Shown: positions 3,816 to 63,489 of the stretch, piece after piece | Numbering within the stretch: the stretch's first letter is position 1 | Layout: each line of letters starts with the position of its first letter | IMG/VR virus record: IMGVR_UViG_3300034160_000140 | DNA from: a virus | Taxonomy: Duplodnaviria; Heunggongvirae; Uroviricota; Caudoviricetes | DNA: 64,000 bases | Strand: one strand, 5' to 3' | Translations under genes and position numbers: made by a program | Notes under the pieces: generated by a model | Databases searched by the model: none | What the model was told of the DNA's origin: nothing | Seen by the model: the letters and a program-made list of their open reading frames with translations, nothing else

Positions 3816-4760
3816 ATGTACATTAAAAAATTGCTCTTAGTTCCTGCACTTTCATTGTTAGGAATGAATTCTTTCGCAGAATATCAAATACAATATCCAG
3901 ATGTTCCCGTTATCTTTAAAGATCTTGGTAAATGGGTTCCGGCTAATCCTATAATCTCTACTTGGGTTAATGTAGGCACTCCACATGATTGTCAAAGTGC
4001 TTCGCCACTTGAGAACACACAACAACTGGGTTTGTCATATGAAAAAACATTTTCAGGCTGCAAACAAGCACAAGAAAGAACTGTAACTACTTCTGAAAAA
4101 CAGACGTTTACAGGTGCTGTTCGTAATCAAGTGAGCACAAAAGAAACACAAGTGTTAACTAATGCTAGTTATAAAGTTAATTCTATTGGAACTACTGATT
4201 TTGGTCAATGGTTACAAACTGCTCCAGTTTATACAGGTTGGGTAAATCTTGAATCTCCACATGATTGTACAAGTGCTATACCACTTGAAAATACACAAAC
4301 ACTTAATTCAACTTATGTAAAAACATTTTCTGGTTGCACACAGTCACAGGAACGCACTGTCACAACTTCTGAAAAGAATACTGTTACAGGTGTTGTTCGT
4401 AACGTAGTTAATACTAAGGAAAATCAAGTTCTCACTAATGTAACTTATACTGCAAATGCAATAGGAACAAAGGTTGTTAAAGAATGTGGTTACTCAGCAG
4501 TCAGTGGACATGCTTACAGATGGTATGATATTGCCACTTATGATGGTTATACAACTACTTATGGAATGGGGTTACAATGGGATGGTTCTACTAAAATTGA
4601 TACCACAAACATTAGTAAGACTTACCCTAAAGCAGCAACTTTTGTGAATGGTGGTTATACTTATACTCGCGGTGCATTTAAAGAAAAAGGTTCACATTAT
4701 GACGGTCTACGTTCATACTATTATTACTATGAAGTGTGTAGAGAACCAATTGCACCATAA
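3816..4760 (+). CDS. secreted modular-family protein with two tandem Cys-pair repeat domains
   Basis: Signal peptide ...MNSFA/EYQIQYP; internal ~85-aa repeat WVN.G.PHDC.SA.PLENTQ...FSGC.Q.QERTVTTSEK..TG.VRN.V.TKE.QVLTN occurs twice; C-terminal YYYEVCREP tail shared by the family. Confidence 0.6.
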   Translation: MYIKKLLLVPALSLLGMNSFAEYQIQYPDVPVIFKDLGKWVPANPIISTWVNVGTPHDCQSASPLENTQQLGLSYEKTFSGCKQAQERTVTTSEKQTFTGAVRNQVSTKETQVLTNASYKVNSIGTTDFGQWLQTAPVYTGWVNLESPHDCTSAIPLENTQTLNSTYVKTFSGCTQSQERTVTTSEKNTVTGVVRNVVNTKENQVLTNVTYTANAIGTKVVKECGYSAVSGHAYRWYDIATYDGYTTTYGMGLQWDGSTKIDTTNISKTYPKAATFVNGGYTYTRGAFKEKGSHYDGLRSYYYYYEVCREPIAP

Positions 4761-4886
4761 TTGAAAAACAAAAAGAAGCTTCGGCTTCTTTTTTCTTGCT
4801 TAAAATAAGATTTTTAGGTATAATGACCTTATTGAAATCCACTATAAATATTGCCGAAAGGCATACTTTTAAAACGGAATATTAAC

Positions 4887-19090: not shown

Positions 19091-19945
19091 ATGCTTAAAA
19101 AGATTTTTGCTTCTCTTGTTCTTCTGGCATCAGTTGCCCTCAGTGGGTGTTCTGAAACCGTAGACGCTGGTTTTGTTGGTGTTGTTGAAAAACATCCCTA
19201 CGTTGGTCCGGGTGGTGTAGAGAAAGAATTTTACAAAGGTGGTGATCGCTACTATATCTCGCCAACCTCCATCATGCACCGCTATGACATTAAACCTATT
19301 CAGAAAGAAGAAGCGTTTAATGACTTGCCATCCAGTAGTTCAACTCCGGTAGACTTTAAAGCGGTGGTTCGTTATGAACTTATCCCTGAACAGGCTTACA
19401 TTTACCATGAAAAATTTGGTAATGCGATGTATGATAACAACTTGAAGAAAGACTTTCAAAATATGCTACGTGACTTTGCTCGACAGCATACAGTGAAACA
19501 ACTTACTACGGATCAGACTGTCACTGACGCTGGTGAAGATGCTGTCTACAAAAAGATGGTCGATATTGTGGTCACAAAAGGTATTCCAGTGCGAATTATG
19601 GCAGTGACCATCGGGGCGATTATGCCACCCGATGAAGTGCTTGCAGAGACGGCTCGGACAGAAGCACAAGTTCAACGAGCTTTGACAGAAGACTCCCGTG
19701 CAGACGCCGAAAAGAAACGTAAGCAGGCTGAAACAAACAAAGCTGACGCTGACAATGAATACATGACCAAGATGAAAATGACACCTGAGCAATACTTGCG
19801 AGGTCGTGAAATTGACAACCAGCGTGAGATTGTTGAAACGGTCAAAAAGAAAGATAACGTCAACATGTTGATTGTCTTGGGTGGTGGTGGTTCCCTTCCA
19901 CAAGGGGTAACAGTTCCACAGCCAATCGTTCAACCAAAGCAGTAA
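19091..19945 (+). CDS. lipoprotein with SPFH/band-7 (HflK/C-prohibitin-like) domain (tentative)
   Basis: Lipobox LSG/C; central region and Ala/Glu/Gln-rich coiled C-terminus (AETARTEAQVQRALTEDSRADAEKKRKQAETNKADADNEY) resemble SPFH proteins from memory; AAGGATAC Shine-Dalgarno site. Confidence 0.45.
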   Translation: MLKKIFASLVLLASVALSGCSETVDAGFVGVVEKHPYVGPGGVEKEFYKGGDRYYISPTSIMHRYDIKPIQKEEAFNDLPSSSSTPVDFKAVVRYELIPEQAYIYHEKFGNAMYDNNLKKDFQNMLRDFARQHTVKQLTTDQTVTDAGEDAVYKKMVDIVVTKGIPVRIMAVTIGAIMPPDEVLAETARTEAQVQRALTEDSRADAEKKRKQAETNKADADNEYMTKMKMTPEQYLRGREIDNQREIVETVKKKDNVNMLIVLGGGGSLPQGVTVPQPIVQPKQ

Positions 19946-20002: not shown

Positions 20003-20470
20003 TTAAAGGTTAGGATAGCGGCATATTTTATAGTAGTTATACTTGGTATCAGCTCTATTAAATGATCCTAATACATAAGTGTATTGACCAGAAACAAATG
20101 GAAAATACTTATTTTGTGTGTATACGCTATCAATCAATATGGCATTAGACCATTTGATATATCTAATCATTCCTGTTGGATAAGGTTTTGATGTATTAAA
20201 TGTCATTGCATAGTTAGAACTTTCTGAATAGTTTTGGCATGTATAACCTGCCCTATCTTCGTCCTTTGGTGGCACTGGTGGTTCAGGAATTACAGGGACT
20301 TCTGGCTCAGGCGGTATTGGTGGTGTTTCTGGATTTGTAGGCGGTTTGATCTTTGAAAATACGATGTCACCTTCATTTAAGTGAGCTTTTGGATGAATGA
20401 CCACTTGATAACTTGCATTCGCTATTGTTGTTACAGCCAATAAAGAGGCTATCATTATTATTTTTTTCAT
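20003..20470 (-). CDS. secreted modular-family protein (Pro-rich linker variant)
   Basis: Signal peptide ...TIANA/SYQVVIHP; PETPPIPPEPEVPVIPEPPVPP linker; C-terminal ...YNYYKICRYPNL family tail. Confidence 0.55.
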   Translation of the reverse strand: MKKIIMIASLLAVTTIANASYQVVIHPKAHLNEGDIVFSKIKPPTNPETPPIPPEPEVPVIPEPPVPPKDEDRAGYTCQNYSESSNYAMTFNTSKPYPTGMIRYIKWSNAILIDSVYTQNKYFPFVSGQYTYVLGSFNRADTKYNYYKICRYPNL

Positions 20471-20620
20471 ATTTTATTTTTATTGTTCTTAATATTATAA
20501 TACATCTGTTTAATAAAAAAACAACATAGCCAGTAATTACGGAAGTTTTTCTAAAAAAATATTGTCATTTTTCAGTTTTTGTTGTATAATTATTCCACAC
20601 TTATGTTGAGAGGATTTACC

Positions 20621-20875
20621 ATGACTACCGTTCAAACTCCAAAAGAAAGCGTGATTGAAGAAGCTACTGACATGATCGACCGTGTTCTGGCTGACGCTCG
20701 GGCTAAACTGCTGAAAGCGGTTGAATGTGGTGCCCTGAACATCACCGAAGATACATCGACACACATTGCTCTTGGTAAAGTTGTTGCCAAAGCTGTTTTG
20801 CTGGATGCTATCGACAATCAGTTGACTTTGGGTAGCCGTGATAAAGAAGTGAAGAACCTTCGCAGCCAGATTTAA
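20621..20875 (+). CDS. hypothetical protein
   Basis: GAGAGGATTTACC-ATG; promoter ttgTATAAT at ~20583; terminator 20895-20925. Confidence 0.5.
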   Translation: MTTVQTPKESVIEEATDMIDRVLADARAKLLKAVECGALNITEDTSTHIALGKVVAKAVLLDAIDNQLTLGSRDKEVKNLRSQI

Positions 20876-21002
20876 GCAGTAGCGACGTTCAAAAAAGCAG
20901 GCTTTCGGGGCTGCTTTTTTTTGACTTAAAATAAGATAAATGTTGTTTTTGTTTTTCATCCTTGTTATAATTGCTCCATCAAAACCAAAGGGGTTTACCA
21001 TC

Positions 21003-21281
21003 ATGTCTATCACTACTGTAACCGTCACTTTTAAAGTCGATACTGTTCTTCGTGACGATACCACTGACTTCTTTCATTTGGACGCTGAAATCCATCATAA
21101 GAATGTTTATGAGTTTCAGGTGCTGAGCTATGACAAAGACCGTAAACTGTGTGTGGCGGAACTCTACTTGCACAGTGCAGTAGACGAAAGCAAACTGCCA
21201 ACCCTTTTCGATGGTTCCCGACTGTCGGTTAGCGTGGATTGCCGCGAAGTTGAATACTCAGGTTTGACGATTGCTGCATAA
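21003..21281 (+). CDS. hypothetical protein
   Basis: AAAGGGG Shine-Dalgarno site; promoter ttgTTATAAT at ~20963. Confidence 0.5.
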   Translation: MSITTVTVTFKVDTVLRDDTTDFFHLDAEIHHKNVYEFQVLSYDKDRKLCVAELYLHSAVDESKLPTLFDGSRLSVSVDCREVEYSGLTIAA

Positions 21282-21346
21282 GGTCAACAAGGTTATTAAT
21301 CAGCAGTCCTTCTGGGCTGCTTTTTCTTTTTTTAAGGAGTTCACAG

Positions 21347-21529
21347 ATGTTAAAAGAAGATCTTTATCACTGGCAAGACACCCCAGAAGAAATGCAAAAA
21401 TGCGACGAAGTATTCGAAAAATTTAACGCGGCTGGTTTGCTGGATGATTTGAAATACATCATTGATAAACGCATGGCAGACGCCCGTTCAGAAGAAGCGT
21501 ATAATAATGCGAATTTTTCCGAAACGTAA
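21347..21529 (+). CDS. hypothetical small protein
   Basis: AAGGAG Shine-Dalgarno site. Confidence 0.4.
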   Translation: MLKEDLYHWQDTPEEMQKCDEVFEKFNAAGLLDDLKYIIDKRMADARSEEAYNNANFSET

Positions 21530-21579
21530 CAAGCAATCATCTTCAAGAAATTTGTAGATATTTTTCAATAATCTGTTTT

Positions 21580-21613
21580 TTGACTTGCCTTCACTGCTGT
21601 ATTTCGATATAAT
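21580..21613 (+). promoter_or_regulatory. promoter region of RNA ligase gene 1
   Basis: ttgact ... cgaTATAAT. Confidence 0.4.
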
Positions 21614-21644
21614 AGCCCAACTCAAACCAGTAGAGATTTGAACC

Positions 21645-22766
21645 ATGTCCAGCATCTTCCCGCGTATTGAAACCCTTGATGATATGCTTCCTCACATCAA
21701 AGACCGTGCCTATATTTCTGTTAATAAACAGGATAACGGTGCCAACATCGTTTGCTATAACATCAGCAACGGCGACTCTTTCAACACTCCGGTTGAAAAG
21801 GAAGCTCGCGGTATTACCTTTGACGACAACGGTAAAATCCTGTCGCGTCCATTGCACAAATTCTTCAACTTGGCAGAGCGTGCAGAAGTCCAACCAGCCG
21901 TTTTGGATTGGAACACGATGGTCGCCGGGTTTGATAAAATGGATGGCTCCATGATTACCACAGGGCTGTTCAACGGCGAATTTTTTGCTAAGTCCAAGAA
22001 GTCTTTCAAATCGGATGTGGCTGTTTCTGCAGAAAGTTTTGTGTCTCGTAACCAGAAATACTACGAGTTCACCAAATATTGCTCTCAGGCCCAACTGACC
22101 CCTATTTTTGAATTCACTTCGCCAAAACATCGTATCGTTTTGCGTTATGACGAAGACAACATGACACTTCTTCATGTTCGTCACAACATCACAGGCGATT
22201 ACTTAATGCCTGCTGACAAAGACCAACTGGCGTTGTTGTTTGATATTCCTGTTAACAAGCCACTGTTTGGTGAAGAATTTGATTTGGCTGCTTTATTGAA
22301 GTCGCTGAACACTGTTGAAGGGATTGAAGGCTACGTTATTCAGTTCGTTAACGGTAACATGATCAAAATCAAAACCAAATGGTATATGAACCTCCATCAT
22401 GCGGTTAGCTTTGTTCGTGAACGTGATATTGCTCGGTTGGTGGTTGAAGAAAAACTTGATGATTATATCGCTTATTTGTCGCTGAACTCGCCAACGGCTG
22501 ATTTGAGTGAGATTTATCGAATCAATGACGCTATCAAAGCTTCGATTGAAGCGTTGTCGAAAGAAGTTGATGATATTGCTGCTGAATTCCAAGGTGTTGA
22601 TGTGAAAACTGCAGCAATTCAGCTTAAAGGCCATAAACACTTTGGTTTTGTTATGGGTGCAATTCGTGGTCACAAAAACGACTACCTGTATCACTACTCT
22701 AAAAACCATCTGGTGGATTGGTCGTTGGAACAAATTGAGCTTGGCGACTTGTCAGCTCCGGTTTAA
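21645..22766 (+). CDS. rnlA: RNA ligase, T4 Rnl1 (gp63) family, paralog 1
   Basis: Nucleotidyltransferase motifs in T4 Rnl1 order: FDKMDGSM (motif I Lys), HKFFNLAE, EFTSPKHRIVLRY, GIEGYVIQF (motif IV), MIKIKTKWY (motif V); similar length (373 aa) to T4 Rnl1. Confidence 0.75.
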   Translation: MSSIFPRIETLDDMLPHIKDRAYISVNKQDNGANIVCYNISNGDSFNTPVEKEARGITFDDNGKILSRPLHKFFNLAERAEVQPAVLDWNTMVAGFDKMDGSMITTGLFNGEFFAKSKKSFKSDVAVSAESFVSRNQKYYEFTKYCSQAQLTPIFEFTSPKHRIVLRYDEDNMTLLHVRHNITGDYLMPADKDQLALLFDIPVNKPLFGEEFDLAALLKSLNTVEGIEGYVIQFVNGNMIKIKTKWYMNLHHAVSFVRERDIARLVVEEKLDDYIAYLSLNSPTADLSEIYRINDAIKASIEALSKEVDDIAAEFQGVDVKTAAIQLKGHKHFGFVMGAIRGHKNDYLYHYSKNHLVDWSLEQIELGDLSAPV

Positions 22767-22883
22767 ATCAGTATGAAGAAAGAAGCCCTGCACTTGCGGG
22801 GCTTTTTAATAATAATCTATTTTTTGGTTGTTAATATTTAGTGTTTGATGTATAATCAATCCATCAAAACAGAGGTTTATCTC

Positions 22884-23267
22884 ATGACAACCATCCGCGA
22901 TAAAGCAGCTAACGTAGACATCACCAGCAAAGGCTTTCTTGATTTTACTGCCCCATTCCGAAAAGGTCAGCATTCTGTTATTTGCTGGTCTTTGGTCGAA
23001 GATGGTTCTTGTGGCATAGAGGAAACCATTGCTTGTCCACCTAATTTTCAACTGGTGGCTATGATGTTTCCAGACGTTTCGGCTGTTGTTATGATGGATC
23101 TGGCTCAAAAACTGCGTAGCTTGTTCAACTCTTGGTGGATAACCGAAGAACCCGAAGCGTATGCAGAGCCGCCACGGAATTATTCGCGTTTTTCTGCCAC
23201 CATTGAATACACTCGTCTTTATGCTTTCTATCTTGAACAGAAAAAAGCGATGGACGCAAAAGCGTAA
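22884..23267 (+). CDS. hypothetical protein
   Basis: CAGAGG Shine-Dalgarno site; promoter gaTGTATAAT at ~22848. Confidence 0.5.
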   Translation: MTTIRDKAANVDITSKGFLDFTAPFRKGQHSVICWSLVEDGSCGIEETIACPPNFQLVAMMFPDVSAVVMMDLAQKLRSLFNSWWITEEPEAYAEPPRNYSRFSATIEYTRLYAFYLEQKKAMDAKA

Positions 23268-23358
23268 ATATCACAAGAAAAGGCAGTCTTTGACTGTCTT
23301 TTTCGTTGTTTGAAAACAATATTTCATGTATAATCCACTGATTAACCCAGAGGTTTCT

Positions 23359-23676
23359 ATGACTAAATTTCGAATTTCCTATGACCTAACGAATGGTGTT
23401 GCAACCCCAGATGGATTATGTGTCAGTCTGGTGGATGAACTGATTTCTTTGCGTCATCTTGGCGATGTGAGCTACACGACTTCGACGGTCAGTGTCATCA
23501 CGGCATTCCGGTTGGCTGCGGCTGAAAAGAAAATCAGCGTTGACGATATTGTCTTTGTTTTTGATGGGGCTGATGTCACAATGGACAACAAATTTGAACT
23601 GTCGGCTTGGCCTAAACAGGGCGACATTCAAGGCAACATGCTTGGAAAAATCATGCAAGCACGAAAAAAAGTTTGA
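23359..23676 (+). CDS. hypothetical protein
   Basis: CAGAGG Shine-Dalgarno site; promoter catGTATAAT at ~23328. Confidence 0.5.
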   Translation: MTKFRISYDLTNGVATPDGLCVSLVDELISLRHLGDVSYTTSTVSVITAFRLAAAEKKISVDDIVFVFDGADVTMDNKFELSAWPKQGDIQGNMLGKIMQARKKV

Positions 23677-23732
23677 ATTAAAAATCAGTTTTTGATATAA
23701 TCAATTCAGACAATTTAATCGTGGAGATTCAC

Positions 23733-24854
23733 ATGACTTATCAACAAGAACTGTATGCCCAACTGATGAACCTGTTGGTGACGAATCCGGGGTCGTTCAA
23801 ATACCGTGATGAAACCTCGGCAGTAGACGGCGGGACTTACCGTGTCTTCAACTATGACATTCCAAAGCACTCCGAATTCAAACTTCCGGGTGCTAAGGAT
23901 TGCCGTGGGGTCATGTTCTACATGGGCGGTGATGATCCAGTGCTGGTTGCATTGCCTATGCAGAAATTTTTCTCGCTCGGTGAAACCCCAGAGACTCAAA
24001 AGATCAAGCCAGAAGAAGCGGATCATGCTTACTTGAAGCCGGACGGTTCCTTGCTGACCAGCTATATCTCGCCGGTTAACAATACGCTTTACTACAAGAG
24101 CAAAAAGAAGCCAACTTTTGCCGATTATGACCTTGTTGAGAAGTCTATCAGCCCTGAGTTGCACGCTGACATTGAGCGTCTGACCCGCACAGGTATTTCT
24201 GTTGACTTGGAATTGACCACGCCCAAAAACCGCGTGTTCATTGAATACACTGATTACGCTGTTCATATCCTAAAAGCCCGTGATATGAGCACTGGTGCTT
24301 ATGTTGATATTCGTTCGGCTGAATTCGCTGCCAAATACCCGGTTATTGCGGCCCATTTGGTGAAACGTATCCCTATCAATGAACTCAACGTCAATGACCC
24401 TGAGATTGAGGGTTATGTGGTTGAATTTGGCACTGACATGTATAAGGTGAAGACAATTCCTTACCTGAAAATGTCGGCAGTTGTCAACATTCAGGATCGG
24501 TCGAAGGAACGTCAGGTTATTTATGAAGCAACCCTTCACGAAATTCTGGATGAAATCCGTTCGTTGTATCACTACCGGACGCACAGCGACAACTTCCCAC
24601 TGGCTGAAATTCTGGCTCGCTTGGATGAAGTAGAAGACTATGCACGTAAAAGCTACCATTACCTTGTTCGCACGGTCGATAGCTTCCACAATGAGCATAA
24701 AGGTCTGGAACGTGGCGATTACGCTCGTAAAGCCAAAGAAGTGGCTCCATTGCTTCTGTCGGTGTTGATGAGCAAGTTTTCGGGTGATGAGATTGATTAC
24801 AAACAAGCTGCTATCATGGTATTTGCTCGTAAACAAGTGCCTATTCCCGAGTAA
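23733..24854 (+). CDS. rnlA: RNA ligase, T4 Rnl1 (gp63) family, paralog 2
   Basis: DCRGVMF, MQKFFSLGE, YLKPDGSL (KxDG motif I), DLELTTPKNRVFIEY, EIEGYVVEF, MYKVKTIPY. These line up with T4 Rnl1 ECRGIMF / MEKFFNL / KEDGSL / NFEFVAPTNRIVLAY / NIEGYVAV / HFKIKSDWY. Confidence 0.85.
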   Translation: MTYQQELYAQLMNLLVTNPGSFKYRDETSAVDGGTYRVFNYDIPKHSEFKLPGAKDCRGVMFYMGGDDPVLVALPMQKFFSLGETPETQKIKPEEADHAYLKPDGSLLTSYISPVNNTLYYKSKKKPTFADYDLVEKSISPELHADIERLTRTGISVDLELTTPKNRVFIEYTDYAVHILKARDMSTGAYVDIRSAEFAAKYPVIAAHLVKRIPINELNVNDPEIEGYVVEFGTDMYKVKTIPYLKMSAVVNIQDRSKERQVIYEATLHEILDEIRSLYHYRTHSDNFPLAEILARLDEVEDYARKSYHYLVRTVDSFHNEHKGLERGDYARKAKEVAPLLLSVLMSKFSGDEIDYKQAAIMVFARKQVPIPE

Positions 24855-24873
24855 GTGACTGTTTAATAAAACG

Positions 24874-24897
24874 GCCCTAGTCTTCTAGGGCTTTTTT
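24874..24897 (+). terminator. rho-independent terminator
   Basis: gccctagtcttctagggc followed by T6. Confidence 0.7.
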
Positions 24898-24983
24898 ATT
24901 TCTATTCAAAAATAGCTTTACGAAAATTATGTTTTTTGCTATAATTCAACTGTTGAAACATACATACTACTCAGGAGCTGAAA

Positions 24984-25271
24984 ATGCCATTCACTGCAAG
25001 CATTGTTAACCGTCATGGTTACGCCCATGCTTTCTGCAAATCCAGCCACGGCCATTACTACATGGGTGGCCCGAAAACTGCAGAAGTGGTTTTTCAAACG
25101 GTAAAAGAGTTCAATGATTTTGTTGAACATCTGGAACATTTGACGGTTGAAGACCCGCGTGTTTCTCAGTATGACCTTGATGTGTTTGGTTTTGTTAAAG
25201 GTCGTGTTCAATTTGATTTGATTACACCGAAAACCGCTAGACCACCAGCACCCATTCATAAACTTAAATAA
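24984..25271 (+). CDS. hypothetical protein
   Basis: CAGGAG Shine-Dalgarno site. Confidence 0.45.
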   Translation: MPFTASIVNRHGYAHAFCKSSHGHYYMGGPKTAEVVFQTVKEFNDFVEHLEHLTVEDPRVSQYDLDVFGFVKGRVQFDLITPKTARPPAPIHKLK

Positions 25272-25284
25272 TATTGGAGTTGTC

Positions 25285-25596
25285 ATGAAAAAATTACTGT
25301 GCTTTTTGGCTGTACCCTTTTTGCTAACAGGTTGTTTGGATGAATTAAAAACGTCCGAAGCTTCACAGGTAAGCACTGCGAATACAATCAAGTATCAAAA
25401 GGAAATTGATATTGCTCGGGATAACGGCCCGCAAGATATTGTTTGTAGCTCAGGTGGTGTTGTTACCTATAAGCACGAAAATGTTATCTTGTATCGTAGC
25501 ATTTATTCAGATACTAGAAACATTGATGTCTATGAACAAGACACTACTGAGAAAGTTGTTGTTTCTGGGGACTGCACCATTCGCCCACATAAGTAA
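25285..25596 (+). CDS. small lipoprotein, family of 3 (with 25638 and 59650)
   Basis: Lipobox LLTG/C; DIVCSSGGVVTYKHENVILYRSI...DVYEQDT.EK...C.IRPHK. Confidence 0.55.
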   Translation: MKKLLCFLAVPFLLTGCLDELKTSEASQVSTANTIKYQKEIDIARDNGPQDIVCSSGGVVTYKHENVILYRSIYSDTRNIDVYEQDTTEKVVVSGDCTIRPHK

Positions 25597-25637
25597 CACA
25601 TATTTTCGTTTATTTAGAACAAATTATTGGAGACTTT

Positions 25638-25931
25638 ATGAAAAAAATATTAGTTGGATTAGCTCTTTCATTGGCACTGTCAGGTTGTGATCGTGTACAA
25701 CCCGCTGCTGTAGATCCTCAAAACAGGGTTATCAGTTATGAACGCGAATATGGCCCGAAAGATATCATTTGCCATTCTGGTTCAGTGGTGACTTATGATC
25801 ACAAAAATGTCATTATTTATCAAAATATTCAGCATAATTCTACCATTCTCGATGTTTATGAGAATGATACTCATGAAAAGATTGGTTTGCCAGTGGCTCA
25901 ATGTATTTGGCGACCTCACAAGCAAAGTTAA
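25638..25931 (+). CDS. small lipoprotein, family of 3
   Basis: Lipobox ALSG/C; DIICHSGSVVTYDHKNVIIYQNI...DVYENDTHEK...C.WRPHK. Confidence 0.55.
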   Translation: MKKILVGLALSLALSGCDRVQPAAVDPQNRVISYEREYGPKDIICHSGSVVTYDHKNVIIYQNIQHNSTILDVYENDTHEKIGLPVAQCIWRPHKQS

Positions 25932-26025
25932 CTGTTGAAAAAGCCGCTTTCGAGCGGTTTTTTGTTGTCTAATTGTTGATAAATCTGTATAATAACGATA
26001 TAGATAAATCCATGAGGCTACGCGA

Positions 26026-41735: not shown

Positions 41736-42050
41736 ATGTTGAAAATTCCACCCGGAACACGAATCCTTCTGGTCTATGATCCAGTTCATGGTGTTCCGAC
41801 ATCTGATGGTCTAGCTGCTGAATTTGTGGCGGATATTGTTGAAAGTAATGATGATCAGTTGATTTACACATCCAGTTCGCTGGTTATTGATTATTTCCGA
41901 TTGGCTGTCTTCAAGAAAGAGTTGTCGCCAAACGATATTGTCATTCGTTTTAATGATAAGGAAATTCTTCTTACGAAGGAAGGCCGATTTTCTGAGTGTC
42001 CAGTTGGTTTTTGCGACTATATGGAAAACATTCTTATGCAGTTGATTTAA
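41736..42050 (+). CDS. hypothetical protein
   Basis: GAGGAAA Shine-Dalgarno site then ATG 41736. Confidence 0.5.
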   Translation: MLKIPPGTRILLVYDPVHGVPTSDGLAAEFVADIVESNDDQLIYTSSSLVIDYFRLAVFKKELSPNDIVIRFNDKEILLTKEGRFSECPVGFCDYMENILMQLI

Positions 42051-43513: not shown

Positions 43514-44380
43514 TTAGTTAACTTGGCAAACTTGATATCCGCCTGATTGATATGGCCCACGTCTGTATAGTTTACCATCAGTTCCTCTTACATCTGGATA
43601 GTTAGTTAAGTAGTCTGGATTGACATAATTTCTATATACAACATTACCTTGCCATAAAACAGTTAATTCTGTAATGTAACCTTCATCTTCTTGATAACCC
43701 CATTCATAAGAACTCCATGCGAAGTTACATACTGTCGCTGGTTTTGTTCCAATACTTGTTCTGGTTGATGTGGTTGTAATGGATTGATTTTCAATAGTCG
43801 ATGATCCTACATTTCTTATCACATTTGTGGTTGTTTCTTGTTCACGATTTTGTTTGCTACGAGTTTGAGGTTGCTTACAATCCGTTGCAGTTTGTGTGAA
43901 TGATTGACCAGATGTGACCGTTGATGTGGCTGGACTCCAGTTCGTGCAGCTTGTTACAGCCCCACTATTAACCCATGTTGTGACATCAGCAGCAATCGCC
44001 ACCCATGTTTCTAATGTGCCTACAGCACTCCGTGTTTGAGTTGTGTTAATACTTTGGGATTCATTGTAAGGATTTCCAATGTTACGAATACTGCCTGAAA
44101 CATTATCAACTTCTCGATCTTGCACTGTTCTGGTTTGATCTTGCTTACAGTCGTTTGCTGTTTGTGTAAACGTATTTCCGATGGTTATTGCAGATACTGC
44201 AGGACTCCAATTTAAACATGAATGCACACTTCCTGTGTTTTCCCAATCGCCATACAATGGAGAATTTGCAGTCCAACTGGCAAATCTTACTGGTTCATCT
44301 AAGTTAAATTTAACAATATATTCAGCTTGTATTATGCCACCAGCTAATGCCAGCGTTAATGATAGTAATGTTTTTTTCAT
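43514..44380 (-). CDS. secreted modular-family protein with two Cys-pair repeat domains
   Basis: Signal peptide ...GGIIQA/EYIVKF; two copies of W.N(T/S)G.V.SC.NWSP..S....G..FTQTA.DCKQ.QTR..Q.RE; C-terminal ...GGYQVCQVN tail. Confidence 0.6.
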   Translation of the reverse strand: MKKTLLSLTLALAGGIIQAEYIVKFNLDEPVRFASWTANSPLYGDWENTGSVHSCLNWSPAVSAITIGNTFTQTANDCKQDQTRTVQDREVDNVSGSIRNIGNPYNESQSINTTQTRSAVGTLETWVAIAADVTTWVNSGAVTSCTNWSPATSTVTSGQSFTQTATDCKQPQTRSKQNREQETTTNVIRNVGSSTIENQSITTTSTRTSIGTKPATVCNFAWSSYEWGYQEDEGYITELTVLWQGNVVYRNYVNPDYLTNYPDVRGTDGKLYRRGPYQSGGYQVCQVN

Positions 44381-44643: not shown

Positions 44644-44672
44644 TTGACCTTAACAGTGATTTTCTCTATAAT
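44644..44672 (+). promoter_or_regulatory. strong sigma70 promoter (TTGACC-17-TATAAT) driving the tRNA cluster
   Basis: cTTGACCttaacagtgattttctcTATAAT; downstream leader ccccatcaagacgaaac resembles the CA-rich leaders of the small basic-protein genes. Confidence 0.6.
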
Positions 44673-44835: not shown

Positions 44836-44921
44836 GCCCGAGTGGTGAAATGGTAGACACGGGAGACTTAAAATCTCCTTCTCGTGAGGGAGTGCCGGTT
44901 CGAGTCCGGCCTCGGGCACCA
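44836..44921 (+). tRNA. tRNA-Leu (anticodon UAA), 86 nt with long variable arm and encoded CCA
   Basis: Manual fold: acceptor GCCCGAG/CTCGGGC, 3-bp D stem, anticodon stem GGAGA/TCTCC with loop CTTAAAA, 15-nt variable arm, T arm GCCGG-TTCGAGT-CCGGC. Confidence 0.85.
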
Positions 44922-45187: not shown

Positions 45188-45264
45188 GGGACTTTAGCTC
45201 AGTTGGTTAGAGCAACCGACTCATAATCGGCAGGTCACAGGTTCAAGTCCTGTAAGTCCCACCA
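45188..45264 (+). tRNA. tRNA with CAU anticodon (Met, or Ile2 if C34 is modified), 77 nt with encoded CCA
   Basis: Manual fold: acceptor GGGACTT/AAGTCCC, D arm GCTC-AGTTGGTTA-GAGC, anticodon loop CTCATAA, T arm ACAGG-TTCAAGT-CCTGT. Confidence 0.85.
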
Positions 45265-48794: not shown

Positions 48795-49148
48795 ATGACG
48801 AAGAAAAAAGTAAAAGAACCCGACATTGACCAAAAATCACCAGATTTTATTGCCTTTGTGAAGCAGTTTAACTACCGCATGAGCAAGGATAAGAAATCTT
48901 TCTACATGGAAGCCACCAGTTCTTGCATTGCTGATGAGGCTGTTGCGAAACCTCCACATTATGAAATCACGTTGGTGTTGTTTCCTGATAGTTCGTTGAC
49001 AACTTTTTTGGCAATTGCGGAAGAAATTTACAACAAGGGCCAGTCTTGCATGGATGAAATTCACGACTACTACGACACTCACTATCCAGAATATTCTTTC
49101 CAAATCACCTTTGTTGATTTGTATCGAATTTATTTAAAACATAAATAA
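48795..49148 (+). CDS. hypothetical protein
   Basis: TAGGAGAA Shine-Dalgarno site. Confidence 0.5.
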   Translation: MTKKKVKEPDIDQKSPDFIAFVKQFNYRMSKDKKSFYMEATSSCIADEAVAKPPHYEITLVLFPDSSLTTFLAIAEEIYNKGQSCMDEIHDYYDTHYPEYSFQITFVDLYRIYLKHK

Positions 49149-49496: not shown

Positions 49497-49670
49497 TTGA
49501 TTACTTATTGACTTATTTAATTTACTTGTTATATTGTTAATAACTGTTCCTCGACAGGTAATTGAGTAAAACAAAAAGAGATCTTCGGATCTCTTTTTTG
49601 TTGCCTAAAATTCTTATTTTTGATATAATAGACACTTATCTTATTATCTTAATGACCTATCTGGTGATTT

Positions 49671-51185: not shown

Positions 51186-51430
51186 ATTTAATTGAAAGGT
51201 CTTGCTTTTTTCATGACCTTTTGTTATAGTTATTAAGTCGGCCTTTGAGCCATGTTCCACGGTGTAGGCGTTCTCCTATGACTCAACATTGACGAGTGTT
51301 GTTTAGTTTCCCTTTGAGGCAGTTAGAAGACGGTTTTGACTACACAGAAAGAGATCTTCGGATCTCTTTTTTTGTTGGTCATTTTTAATTTTTATGGTAT
51401 AATCATGACCTATCTTAAAGGATTAGAACC

Positions 51431-61021: not shown

Positions 61022-61633
61022 TTACATTGGCACTCTACATACAGTCCATATTGACGAGTATCCAGAGTTACTAGTAATAGTTCCTTTTTTATAGGTATAG
61101 GTTCCAACAACTTTTTCAGTTGCTGCATATTCGCCACCACTATACACTAAGGTACCAGCCCATTTTATATTAAGAAGTGCATATGCTGGAGAACCTGCTG
61201 TCCAACTAGAATCAGCAACATTACATTCCTCAACAGTCTTTGTTCCAATAGCTGTTCGGGTAGTTGTTTGATTTTTTAATGTTTGACTCTCATTTTTTAT
61301 AGACCCAACATTTCTATATTCATGACTGACATTGTTTTGCTCTCTTTCCTGCACTGTTCTGGTTTGCTCTTGATTACACCCACTACCAGTTTGAGGAAAG
61401 GATACTCCCATATTTACTGTGTTGGTGTCTGGTGTCCATGCTGTGCATCCTGTTGGAGAACCCACATTGACCCATGAACTCAATAATGGGGCGGAACTTA
61501 ACCATTTACTTACAAAACTAATATTTTCACCATTAATTTGTTTTTCACCGTATATAACTTGGTAATTTGCGTTTGCACTAGCCATTATACCTAATAAAGC
61601 AAATGGCAATATCATTAAACTTGTTTTTTTCAT
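61022..61633 (-). CDS. secreted modular-family protein (one Cys-pair domain), tandem-array member 1
   Basis: Signal peptide ...MASANA/NYQVIYGEKQINGENISFVSKWLSS; WVNVGSPTGCTAWTPD...FPQTGSGCNQEQTRTVQEREQNN; C-terminal ...YKKGTITSNSGYSSIWTVCRVPM. Confidence 0.6.
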   Translation of the reverse strand: MKKTSLMILPFALLGIMASANANYQVIYGEKQINGENISFVSKWLSSAPLLSSWVNVGSPTGCTAWTPDTNTVNMGVSFPQTGSGCNQEQTRTVQEREQNNVSHEYRNVGSIKNESQTLKNQTTTRTAIGTKTVEECNVADSSWTAGSPAYALLNIKWAGTLVYSGGEYAATEKVVGTYTYKKGTITSNSGYSSIWTVCRVPM

Positions 61634-62140: not shown

Positions 62141-62185
62141 TTATTATATTGGAACTCTACAAACGCTATGGAATGTGTAATAACC
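62141..62185. repeat. 45-nt exact repeat (3' end plus 3' flank of a secreted gene), copy A
   Basis: ttattatattggaactctacaaacgctatggaatgtgtaataacc is identical at 62863..62907. Confidence 0.8.
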
Positions 62186-62770
62186 TGCGTTAGCAGTTTG
62201 AGCACCTTTGGTATATTTATATCCATTATACGTGTATTCTGTTAAGTAGATATTGCCACTGTCAGGGAATACTTTTACACCTTCCCACATAACATACATA
62301 ACACCGAATGATGGTGTGCCATTAACCCAGCGTGTATTTTGATCTTTTGAACATTCTTCAATGACCTTTGTTCCGTTTGCAGAACGGGTTAGTGTTTGAT
62401 TAGTTAGCGTTTGATTCTCATTTTTAACAGAACCTAAATTTCTGGACTCTCCACTGACATTATTTTTCTCTCTTTCCTGAACTGTTCTTGTTTGATTTTG
62501 ACTGCATCCAGTAGCTGTTTGATCAAAGGTCACTCCAATATTTTTTGTGCTTACGTCTGGTGTCCATGCTGAACAACCTGTTGGAGAACCTACATTTGTC
62601 CAGTTACCTAACAATGGATCAGAACTTAACCATTTGCTTACAAAACTAATATTGTCACCATTAATTTGTTTTTCACCATAAACTACAGTGTAGGATGGTT
62701 CTTTTGCTTGTGCATTAACTGCCAAACCTAGCAAAGCTAACGATAGTATTTTTATCATTGATTTTTTCAT
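62144..62770 (-). CDS. secreted modular-family protein (one Cys-pair domain), array member 3
   Basis: Signal peptide ...AVNAQA/KEPSYTVVYGEKQINGDNISFVSKWLSS; WTNVGSPTGCSAWTPD...FDQTATGCSQNQTRTVQEREKNN; C-terminal ...YKYTKGAQTANAGYYTFHSVCRVPI. Confidence 0.6.
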   Translation of the reverse strand: MKKSMIKILSLALLGLAVNAQAKEPSYTVVYGEKQINGDNISFVSKWLSSDPLLGNWTNVGSPTGCSAWTPDVSTKNIGVTFDQTATGCSQNQTRTVQEREKNNVSGESRNLGSVKNENQTLTNQTLTRSANGTKVIEECSKDQNTRWVNGTPSFGVMYVMWEGVKVFPDSGNIYLTEYTYNGYKYTKGAQTANAGYYTFHSVCRVPI

Positions 62771-62862: not shown

Positions 62863-62907
62863 TTATTATATTGGAACTCTACAAACGCTATGGAATGTGT
62901 AATAACC
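62863..62907. repeat. 45-nt exact repeat, copy B
   Basis: Identical to 62141..62185; similarity (~88%) continues through the C-terminal coding half. Confidence 0.8.
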
Positions 62908-63489
62908 ATAGTTAGCAGTTAATGCACCTTTAGTGTATTTATATCCATTATAGGTATATTCTGTTAAGTTAATATTACCAATATCAGGGAATACTTTTAC
63001 ACCTTCCCACATGATATACATCATACTCATTGATGGTGTGCCATTAACCCAACGTGTGTTCATATCTTTTGAACATTCATCCACAACCTTTGTTCCATTT
63101 GCCGAACGGGTTATTGTCTGATTAGTGAGTGTTTGTGATTCATTTATTGGATTGCCAATAGGTCGAAATGCTAACGTATAATTGTTTTGTTCTCTGTTCT
63201 GGACTGTTCTCGATTGTTCTTGTTCGCAGTCACTGGCTGTTTGGTCAAAAGTTATTCCAATTGCCATTGTGCTCGGGTCAGGTGTCCAACCAGAACAACC
63301 AGATGGAGAGCCTACATCAGCCCATGCTGATATTTCTGGTGATGCTTTTATCCACTTGCCTTTTTTGACAAACGTGATGTTGTCTCCATTGATTTGTTTC
63401 TCTCCATATATAGCAGTATATGAAGCATTTGCTGTTAATGCAGTGCTCGCTAAAAGGGCACTTGTTAACATAAGTATTGTCTTTTTCAT
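62866..63489 (-). CDS. secreted modular-family protein (one Cys-pair domain), array member 4
   Basis: Signal peptide ...ALTANA/SYTAIYGEKQINGDNITFVKKGKW; WADVGSPSGCSGWTPD...FDQTASDCEQEQSRTVQNREQNN; C-terminal half (from ECSKD..NTRWVNGTPS to YTFHSVCRVPI) nearly identical to 62144..62770. Confidence 0.6.
   Translation of the reverse strand: MKKTILMLTSALLASTALTANASYTAIYGEKQINGDNITFVKKGKWIKASPEISAWADVGSPSGCSGWTPDPSTMAIGITFDQTASDCEQEQSRTVQNREQNNYTLAFRPIGNPINESQTLTNQTITRSANGTKVVDECSKDMNTRWVNGTPSMSMMYIMWEGVKVFPDIGNINLTEYTYNGYKYTKGALTANYGYYTFHSVCRVPI

Follow-up and report, generated by a model that had tools for sequence, protein, structure and literature searches.

Why would a phage keep two divergent RNA ligases of the T4 Rnl1 type almost side by side? 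The question is raised by a stretch of 64,000 nucleotides (hereafter the window) from the Caudoviricetes virus record IMGVR_UViG_3300034160_000140, where an earlier note, made from the letters alone, had recognized two Rnl1-type ligases in tandem with two small genes between them. Specialization of the two copies on different broken tRNAs had been proposed, or else a role of one copy in tail-fibre attachment. The four genes are as follows.

21645..22766, + strand: ligase A, predicted Rnl1-family RNA ligase of the jumbo-phage subclade, subtype A1; 373 aa, catalytic Lys98
22884..23267, + strand: orfX, 127 aa, mostly helical, confined to this lineage; dN/dS 0.07-0.18
23359..23676, + strand: orfY, 105 aa, alpha/beta, PHROG 12026
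23733..24854, + strand: ligase B, predicted Rnl1-family RNA ligase of the T4-related subclade; 373 aa, catalytic Lys102

At the level of sequence and profile comparison, ORFs A and B are confirmed as full-length Rnl1-family RNA ligases. The comparison with T4 gp63 and Rnl1-family HMMs that the earlier note had recommended returned both copies: Pfam PF09511 (RNA_lig_T4_1) is matched with 97.4 bits by A and 34.2 bits by B, both above the gathering score of 28.3, PHROG 562 is matched at 6e-73 and 1.9e-46, and the sequences of the T4 Rnl1 crystal structures at 2e-27 by A and 2e-34 to 4e-34 by B, with identities to T4 Rnl1 of 27-30%. Neither copy belongs to another ligase family such as Rnl2, as PF09414 and TIGR02307 (the Rnl2-type nucleotidyltransferase domain) had no match in A or B, and the motif I lysine is present in each (K98 in A, K102 in B). 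Both score under the 242-bit cut-off of the NCBIfam equivalog for T4 RnlA, TIGR02308 (A 152, B 147), so that they need not be functional equivalents of T4 Rnl1.

Twelve residues that we take to be essential in T4 Rnl1 (R54, K75, F77, K99, D101, G102, K119, E159, E227, G228, K240 and K242) are all kept in both A and B, including the equivalents of the glutamates E159 and E227, which the earlier note had singled out for checking. This list was drawn in part from the literature (PMC6379707). The motif residues K99, D101, G102, E159, E227, G228, K240 and K242 are found in A, B and 20 family members, and the only exceptions to the catalytic set are single K119 or F77 substitutions in three distant B-family proteins. 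The residues R, K, F and F, which further characterize the Rnl1 family, are likewise kept in both. The motif set read from the letters is therefore present in both proteins, although two of its spellings had to be corrected for B, which has FFSL and NRVF and not FFNL and NRIV. Both enzymes would be competent for ATP-dependent sealing of RNA ends with a 3'-OH and a 5'-PO4.

RNA ligase families are set apart by the domain appended to the nucleotidyltransferase core, and the tRNA specificity of T4 Rnl1 is conferred by its C-domain (PMC6379707). This domain is also the fastest-evolving part of Rnl1 generally. B aligns with T4 Rnl1 residues 2-348 and the A-family profile with residues 30-350 (99.9% probability), and Pfam T4_Rnl1_C has a weak match in B (E 0.0019, under gathering); a helical C-terminal domain of the Rnl1 type is accordingly predicted in both A and B. 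Identity between the two is ~19% in the C-domain against 24-32% in the catalytic domain, and 9 C-domain positions are fixed within each family but different between the families, with 3 common to both. Divergence in the part presumed to recognize the substrate fits different RNA substrates, without proving it.

Over the whole proteins, A and B are 26% identical by BLASTP (311 aa) and 22% in the multiple alignment; the deep divergence noticed earlier is real, while the figure then given, about 30%, was too high. In the tree, A groups with Rnl1s of jumbo phages and B with T4-type Rnl1s, a split with 100% bootstrap; the A type is that of jumbo and other large myoviruses, and the B type is related to T4/Tevenvirinae. 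Since they come from two separate Rnl1 subclades, A and B are not the product of a local duplication. For A, dN/dS is 0.04-0.10, and for B, the copy that evolves more slowly, it is 0.03-0.07, with synonymous sites saturated; such values indicate that both ligases are functional and probably non-redundant. From the long retention of both genes under strong purifying selection and the diverged C-domain only, we infer that A and B may be specialized on different substrates, which would agree in part with the earlier proposal.

The A-orfX-orfY-B block is not peculiar to the window. It recurs on more than 8 independent contigs (carriers L001, L002, L012-L014 and L044-L049, from JGI, ENA and Logan assemblies), where the 3.2 kb form one uninterrupted stretch; these contigs measure between 9 kb and 1.9 Mb, belong to three data sources and were built by several assemblers. 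The recurrence of the block in JGI, ENA and Logan data shows that A and B were not brought together by faulty assembly. Its carriers span sequence divergence down to 79% for A and 88% for B. In the nearest outgroup (L003/L051), orfX-orfY-B is missing beside A at the same place, and the related L017 genome has B at a different locus. The same contigs, which are very large (1.5-1.9 Mb), have further Rnl1 copies at other places, with other A-type loci ~300 kb away, and an OB-fold plus PF09414 ligase is also found on these block-carrying contigs. A length of 1.5-1.9 Mb is about twice that of the largest phage genome reported.

Outside this group, megablast of positions 21000-26000 against deposited phages found no match, nor did an IMG/VR single-sequence search with B or a GTDB genome scan with A, and an IMG/VR profile search with the B family found one good relative only. 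The protein at the right end of the window matched no record either. When 50,697 deposited phage records were searched by tblastn, matching places equalled matching records (1687/1687 and 1565/1565), thus no deposited phage has two Rnl1 loci. Three apparent parallels were set aside: the two 'RNA ligase' genes 2.7 kb apart in Caulobacter phage Cr30, the second of which is of Rnl2 type; a pair of adjacent B-type matches in a fern assembly, with one ligase only within +-10 kb; and relatives on 150-437 kb IMG/VR viral contigs that looked as if they had A only, at least two of which are excerpts of contigs of 1.54 and 1.86 Mb, so that the missing B holds for the excerpt and the +-10 kb neighbourhood only.

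The four genes of the block are accompanied by the following predicted signals.

21585..21613, + strand: ligase A promoter, sigma70-type, TTGCCT-N17-TATAAT, 32 nt upstream of the ATG
22783..22807, + strand: intrinsic terminator after ligase A, a hairpin with an ACTT loop followed by a T run
22828..22856, + strand: orfX promoter, sigma70-type, TTGTTA-N17-TATAAT, overlapping the longer alternative start at 22848
23277..23303, + strand: intrinsic terminator after orfX
23306..23334, + strand: orfY promoter, sigma70-type, TTGTTT-N17-TATAAT
23673..23701, + strand: ligase B promoter, sigma70-type, TTGAAT-N17-TATAAT, with extended -10 TG
24873..24897, + strand: intrinsic terminator after ligase B

RNA folding of the 64-nt intergenic stretch after ligase A gave -20.3 kcal/mol; the orfY-B interval has no terminator. 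An operon of A, orfX, orfY and B was rejected on account of the own promoter of each gene and the terminators after A and orfX, and on these predictions the four genes are separate promoter units. The same promoters would give A and B an early type of expression. Across the window, 44 TTGnnn-N16-18-TATAAT sites were counted, of which ~37 fall between genes, 25-45 nt before a start codon, and a hairpin with a T run stands directly 5' of many predicted promoters. These promoter and terminator calls are consensus matches, whose total in a 4.5-kb scan is not above shuffled controls; despite this unremarkable total, their positional pattern across the window is striking. Moreover, the gene content of close relatives differs exactly at the terminator-promoter junctions, and the region is an accessory one, with no structural genes around A and B.

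It had also been suggested that one of the two small ORFs between the ligases encodes an unusual end-healing partner. The shorter starts given for them, 22884 and 23359, are preferred, as the longer ATG starts overlap promoters and have no ribosome-binding site. Yet no kinase or phosphatase features were found in orfX or orfY by sequence, profile or fold: neither has a Walker A motif, DxDxT, HxT/S pairs, another catalytic signature or a matching fold, and P-loop kinases and HAD, 2H, calcineurin or cRec phosphoesterases were rejected as candidates by all three kinds of test. Paralogues of both ORFs occur at other places of the window that are remote from the ligases, and where another genome has a solitary A- or B-type ligase, neither ORF is regularly found with it, so the suggestion is not upheld. 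In related genomes the orfY slot is occupied by three deeply divergent allelic types. Rather than healing enzymes, orfX and orfY would be passengers or else small, unrelated early proteins.

The lack of a recognizable polynucleotide kinase (Pnk) in the window, already remarked on, was borne out in three ways: Walker A occurs in no real ORF of the 64 kb, none of the window's 117 ORFs belongs to the kinase or HAD Pfam families, and T4 Pnk had no tblastn match in the window at E<=10. Within 10 kb of ~100 loci of the A and B families no Pnk was found, apart from one weak case in 80, and the same approach did find a Pnk adjoining Rnl1 in the positive controls T4, S16, L010, L031 and L043. This absence covers the 64-kb window and +-10 kb around the ligases of a much larger genome, and a Pnk, phosphoesterase or RtcB may be encoded elsewhere in it. 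End-healing would thus be either provided from far away in the genome or not needed. In fact, T4 Rnl1 seals the nick of a Toprim nuclease without healing (PMC12445682), and breaks made by metal-dependent nucleases would already carry 5'-phosphate and 3'-OH ends, making healing unnecessary.

Taken as a whole, the locus is best explained by two Rnl1 ligases that together widen the range of RNA breaks that can be resealed, a reading to which we give a probability of roughly 0.55. According to it, A and B would be two catalytically competent ATP-dependent ligases from two deep Rnl1 branches, separated by 1 kb in an early, hyperplastic region that is built from shuffling cassettes and belongs to a very large phage-like genome, and both would be made early in infection from promoters read by the host polymerase. 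Each would seal RNA breaks with 3'-OH and 5'-phosphate ends, most likely nicked tRNA anticodon loops, and their divergent C-domains would give them different substrate ranges, so that more than one host RNA-cutting defence could be countered. The further Rnl1 copies and the OB-fold ligase on the same contigs suggest that A and B are part of a larger ligase arsenal. A bolder form of this reading, in which a 1.5-1.9 Mb genome deploys a Pnk-free Rnl1 arsenal, made up of an OB-fold ligase and at least three Rnl1 paralogues that differ in subtype, each with a C-domain that suits it to its own class of host-inflicted break, is put forward very tentatively, and it is with the same reserve that we would count the 5'-P/3'-OH nicks made by Toprim- or PIN-type defence nucleases among those classes.

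It is possible, though unlikely, that A and B serve the same function on one set of RNAs, one of them being a back-up or decoy, a divergent isozyme by which the phage escapes hosts that inhibit or sense one type of Rnl1. The identical catalytic set of A and B and the early-type promoters before both would agree with this, an identity of 22-26% would defeat a protein-specific inhibitor, and related genomes have only A or only B locally. However, we found no report, in a literature search, that Rnl1 is inhibited or sensed by any factor of the host, and the many C-domain positions fixed differently in each family are more typical of a changed specificity.

Nor do we see much likelihood, and no more than for a back-up, in a division of labour by which one copy repairs tRNAs and the other is engaged in mRNA or rRNA repair, RNA circularization or processing of phage transcripts. 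In vitro, T4 Rnl1 accepts many single-stranded RNAs for joining, which speaks for such a division, as do the scores of both A and B under the T4 RnlA equivalog cut-off, the near-complete lack of Pnk beside the ~100 related loci and the homologues of the T4 RegB-type endoribonuclease found close to further ligase loci on the same contigs. Nothing positive was found for any of these substrates, however, and tRNA repair is the sole established physiological role of the family (PMC6379707).

Less probable still is the alternative raised in the earlier note, that one of the two now fulfils the second, non-catalytic role of T4 gp63 and promotes the attachment of long tail fibres to the baseplate. 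This activity is not known outside T4, which counts against it here. Even though T4 gp63 is credited with this second activity (T4 annotation; name of PHROG 562) and B falls in the T4-related subclade, a copy used for attachment only would be free to lose catalytic residues; A, B and the other A-family sequences have lost none, and three other sampled B-family members have only isolated F77 or K119 substitutions. The very low dN/dS of both ligases and their position behind early-type promoters, away from structural genes, disfavour it as well. Finally, a chimeric assembly of two related one-ligase phages, for which the A-type loci ~300 kb away might be cited since chained related genomes are one possible cause of them, is effectively refuted by the contiguous block on many independent contigs.

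Returning to two ligases with a widened range of targets, many recently described bacterial defences cut tRNAs, and phage counter-measures are known in detail for T4 only, where they consist of one Rnl1 plus Pnk. Two divergent Rnl1s side by side under strong selection, with more elsewhere, are a natural experiment: comparison of A with B and swaps of their C-domains could reveal how Rnl1 recognizes its RNA targets, and could show if ligase-only repair counters nucleases that leave ligatable ends. If A and B are interchangeable, they are merely another pair of paralogues in a paralogue-rich genome.

Among known systems, T4 gp63/RnlA with PseT, the tRNA repair that counters PrrC, is of the same family and domain layout as A and B, namely an N-terminal subdomain, motifs I, III, IV and V and a helical C-domain. 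T4 Rnl1 is early, and so apparently are A and B, judging from their promoters. In T4 a single Rnl1 gene lies 1.4 kb from pseT, and S16 is arranged likewise, whereas here there are two Rnl1s of different subclades and no Pnk in the window. The setting recalls the PeSL (promoter-early stem-loop) cassettes of the hyperplastic regions of T4-type phages, in which a terminator and an early promoter are known to shuffle genes (PMC2839356, PMC4122927). As in PeSLs, almost every interval between small genes has a TTG-N17-TATAAT promoter with a terminator hairpin directly against it, the loop of which is often TTCG; the likeness is one of architecture. Putative composite cassettes of the PeSL type would thus flank the variable genes, in a genome far larger than that of any T4-type phage. 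In jumbo phages, RtcB, Rnl1 and Rnl2 occur in combinations, with three Rnl2 paralogues in Xanthomonas phage XacN1, and their several ligases were proposed to be non-redundant and directed against different host RNases (Iyer et al. 2021, PMC7824862). The present case resembles these arsenals in that a single, very large phage genome encodes several RNA ligases, and differs from them in that here it is the Rnl1 family itself that is multiplied, with the two copies adjacent. The locus is no new mechanism; it extends the known multi-ligase pattern of jumbo phages.

The small ORFs orfX and orfY lie between two genes whose products both look like catalytically active Rnl1-type RNA ligases:

21645-22766, plus strand, ligase A (373 aa)
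22884-23267, orfX
23359-23676, orfY
23733-24854, plus strand, ligase B (373 aa)

Pfam family RNA_lig_T4_1 was matched by A at 97.4 bits and by B at 34.2 bits, both exceeding the gathering score of 28.3 bits; B also gave a weak match to T4_Rnl1_C, and PHROG 562 was matched almost end to end by both proteins. Against T4 Rnl1 crystal-structure sequences, A aligned over residues 33-277 (2e-27) and B over residues 3-351 (2e-34 to 4e-34). Since the A-family profile aligns with T4 Rnl1 residues 30-350 (99.9% probability), A also carries the Rnl1 C-domain. In an alignment of A and B with T4 Rnl1 and 20 relatives, R54, K75, F77, K99, D101, G102, K119, E159, E227, G228, K240 and K242 (T4 Rnl1 numbering) were all kept in both; all of these are essential in T4 Rnl1. 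R54, K75 and F76 are covered by PMC6379707. The earlier note described two tandem Rnl1 ligases, ~30% identical; family membership stands for both, with small corrections to the motifs as spelled there and to their percent identity, which is 26% by BLASTP and 22% in the multiple alignment.

The tree argues that the pair is not a duplication and that its members belong to different Rnl1 subclades. In a neighbour-joining tree (30 sequences, 338 columns, 200 bootstraps), the A and B sides were split at 100% bootstrap; A and its family cluster with Rnl1s of Ralstonia phage RsoM2USA, BcepSauron, Cr30, phiM19 and Moby, and B and its family with T4 and S16. The closest deposited relative of A is RsoM2USA (42% identity), and those of B are T4-like phages (31-32%); B's own metagenomic family comprises 46 proteins, from 95% down to 32% identity. 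When 50,697 deposited phage records were searched by tblastn, matching places equalled matching records for A (1687/1687) and B (1565/1565), and thus none of these phages has two Rnl1 loci. Cr30 was rejected as a two-ligase precedent, its second "RNA ligase" being Rnl2-type. Of 80 A-type loci from metagenomes, only those of the window's own clade have a pair of ligases within 10 kb, and every B-family locus outside this clade has B alone.

The A-orfX-orfY-B block was found again on contigs of JGI, ENA and Logan origin (L001, L002, L012-L014, L044-L049).

Conservation of the block across genomes (synonymous sites saturated, dS > 1)
A: amino-acid identity 79-85%, dN/dS 0.04-0.10
B: amino-acid identity 88-91%, dN/dS 0.03-0.07
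orfX: amino-acid identity 70-81%, dN/dS 0.07-0.18
orfY: amino-acid identity 33-61% between types, dN/dS about 0.09 within type

The low dN/dS of A and B indicates that selection maintains both ligases, B being under the tighter constraint. The orfY slot (23359-23676, and the corresponding position in L001, L012-L014, L044 and L047) holds three deeply divergent versions, 33-61% identical, flanked by ligases that are 79-91% identical; this slot either evolves fast or was replaced repeatedly. Even in the otherwise nearly identical L001, orfY differs by 13%.

Divergence between the ligases is also seen by domain. Compared pairwise, A, B and T4 are about 19% identical over the C-domain and 24-32% over the catalytic domain; 9 C-domain positions are family-conserved but different between the A and B families and 3 are common to both, versus 22 and 32, respectively, in the N-domain. 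The T4 Rnl1 C-domain confers tRNA specificity (PMC6379707), and the C-domain divergence would fit different substrate ranges.

The absence of a recognisable polynucleotide kinase (Pnk) from the window, as the earlier note had it, was confirmed by Walker A motif, Pfam and tblastn. The 10-kb surroundings of the examined A- and B-family ligases have no Pnk, and only 1/80 of the distant A-type loci has one; in the positive controls (T4, S16, L010, L031, L043) Pnk adjoins Rnl1. The proposal that the neighbouring ORFs hide an end-healing partner was not supported: orfX and orfY matched nothing among families, PDB entries or the defence library, each has a paralogue at a distance in the window (48795-49148 and 41736-42050), and they do not consistently accompany solitary ligases. 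T4 Rnl1 seals the nick of a Toprim nuclease (5'-P/3'-OH ends) without healing (PMC12445682), so repair by ligase alone would be mechanistically possible. Near a solitary B-type ligase (72% identical, L015), a HAD_SAK_2 "Swiss-army-knife" phosphatase and tyrosyl- and glutamyl/glutaminyl-tRNA synthetase genes lie within 10 kb, with a NUDIX gene immediately upstream (features reported at L015:19486-19911, L015:12403-13659 and 20033-21215); there, end-healing could be the task of such a stand-alone 3'-phosphatase.

Nearly each small gene of the window is predicted to form its own early transcription unit. The window has 44 TTGnnn-N16-18-TATAAT sites (for example 4796-4824, 25965-25993, 49601-49629 and 51375-51403), ~37 of them intergenic, typically with N17 and 25-45 nt 5' of the start codon, for nearly every gene; a hairpin and T run terminator, many with a TTCG loop, often lies directly 5' of the promoter. 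A, orfX, orfY and B have one predicted promoter each, and terminators are predicted 3' of A, orfX and B; none was found 3' of orfY. The short starts of orfX (22884) and orfY (23359) are backed by ribosome-binding sites. Gene content differs between relatives at cassette junctions: in the nearest outgroup (L003/L051, A at 74%), A is followed by a 122-aa ORF and a homologue of the gene 3' of B, orfX-orfY-B being absent there, and in L017, with 23 window ORFs in common, B stands alone at a different locus. The gene at 19091-19945, 1.7 kb upstream of A, encodes an SPFH/Band_7 protein that starts with a lipoprotein signal sequence; it is present in L001, L013 and L046-L048 and missing from L012, L014 and L044, another indel at a cassette junction.

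Block-bearing contigs reach 1.92, 1.86, 1.85, 1.28 and 0.68 Mb, and related or near-identical copies of the window region occur on 1.3-1.9 Mb contigs from several samples and assemblers; relatives also sit on additional contigs > 1 Mb.

Large contigs carrying near-identical or related copies
Ga0370506_000001 (L001/L026): 1,917,244 bp
Ga0308158_10000001 (L047/L049/L057): 1,859,102 bp
Ga0247725_1000001 (L051/L052): 1,539,155 bp
L046: 1,281,823 bp

Two IMG/VR "viral contigs", L003 and L009, reproduce stretches of these contigs at 100% identity (L003 = L051, L009 = L057; also L004 = L053); excerpts of 179 and 290 kb were traced in this way to the 1.86 and 1.54 Mb contigs. IMG/VR lacks the ligase tandem of the 1.86 Mb contig and its surroundings, so viral calls cover parts only. 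At the sampled loci, phage genes were found (for RegB, tail collar fibre, endonuclease VII and DNA polymerase), whereas cellular markers were not. Reported phage genomes reach 841 kb at most (bioRxiv 10.1101/2025.01.14.633092); either the large contigs are phage-like genomes > 1.5 Mb or related ~300 kb jumbo phages were chained during assembly, and the 3.2-kb tandem is solid under either reading. The 1.86 Mb contig has a further A-type ligase (62% identity to A) at a distance of 312 kb, and on the 1.54 Mb contig 298 kb separate two A-type loci; on both contigs examined the paired loci share orientation at ~300 kb. A third kind of RNA ligase, with an N-terminal PHA02142 OB-fold and PF09414 (L052:3054-4139, L053:2370-3464), lies ~7 kb upstream of the A3-type Rnl1, one A-type subtype, both on the 1.54 Mb contig, where it accompanies one of the two A-type loci, and on a contig of 437 kb; its architecture resembles DraRnl/Rnl5.

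Multi-copy families abound in the window, with ~20 paralogue pairs at 25-67% identity, and the A/B pair is one among them. These include a five-member family (3816-4760; minus strand, 43514-44380, 61022-61633, 62144-62770, 62866-63489), whose relatives have B-type ligases as neighbours in L017 and L029, and the groups 25285-25596/25638-25931/59650-59928 and 32463-33119/33244-33891/8825-9457/7266-7898; a trio of small lipobox proteins is among the families. Genes for tRNA-Leu(TAA) (44836-44921) and tRNA-Met(CAT) (45188-45264) lie downstream of a promoter-like site (44644-44672), phage-encoded tRNAs being a further known route past tRNA-targeting defences. The assembly of the fern Adiantum nelumboides (L028; JAKNSL020003210.1, 1.16 Mb contig, 540802-561977) lists among its genes a B-type Rnl1 with 44% identity to B; with a GC content of 37% locally, this probably represents contamination or transferred phage-like sequence.

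Taken together, A and B, which separate predicted early promoters would drive, are probably non-redundant and most likely belong to an RNA-repair arsenal of several ligases. In architecture only, the window resembles the PeSL cassettes of T4-type phages, which mediate gene shuffling in hyperplastic regions (PMC2839356, PMC4122927). Multi-ligase jumbo phages, and the proposal that their ligases are specialised, have already been published (PMC7824862), and the A/B locus therefore extends a known pattern.
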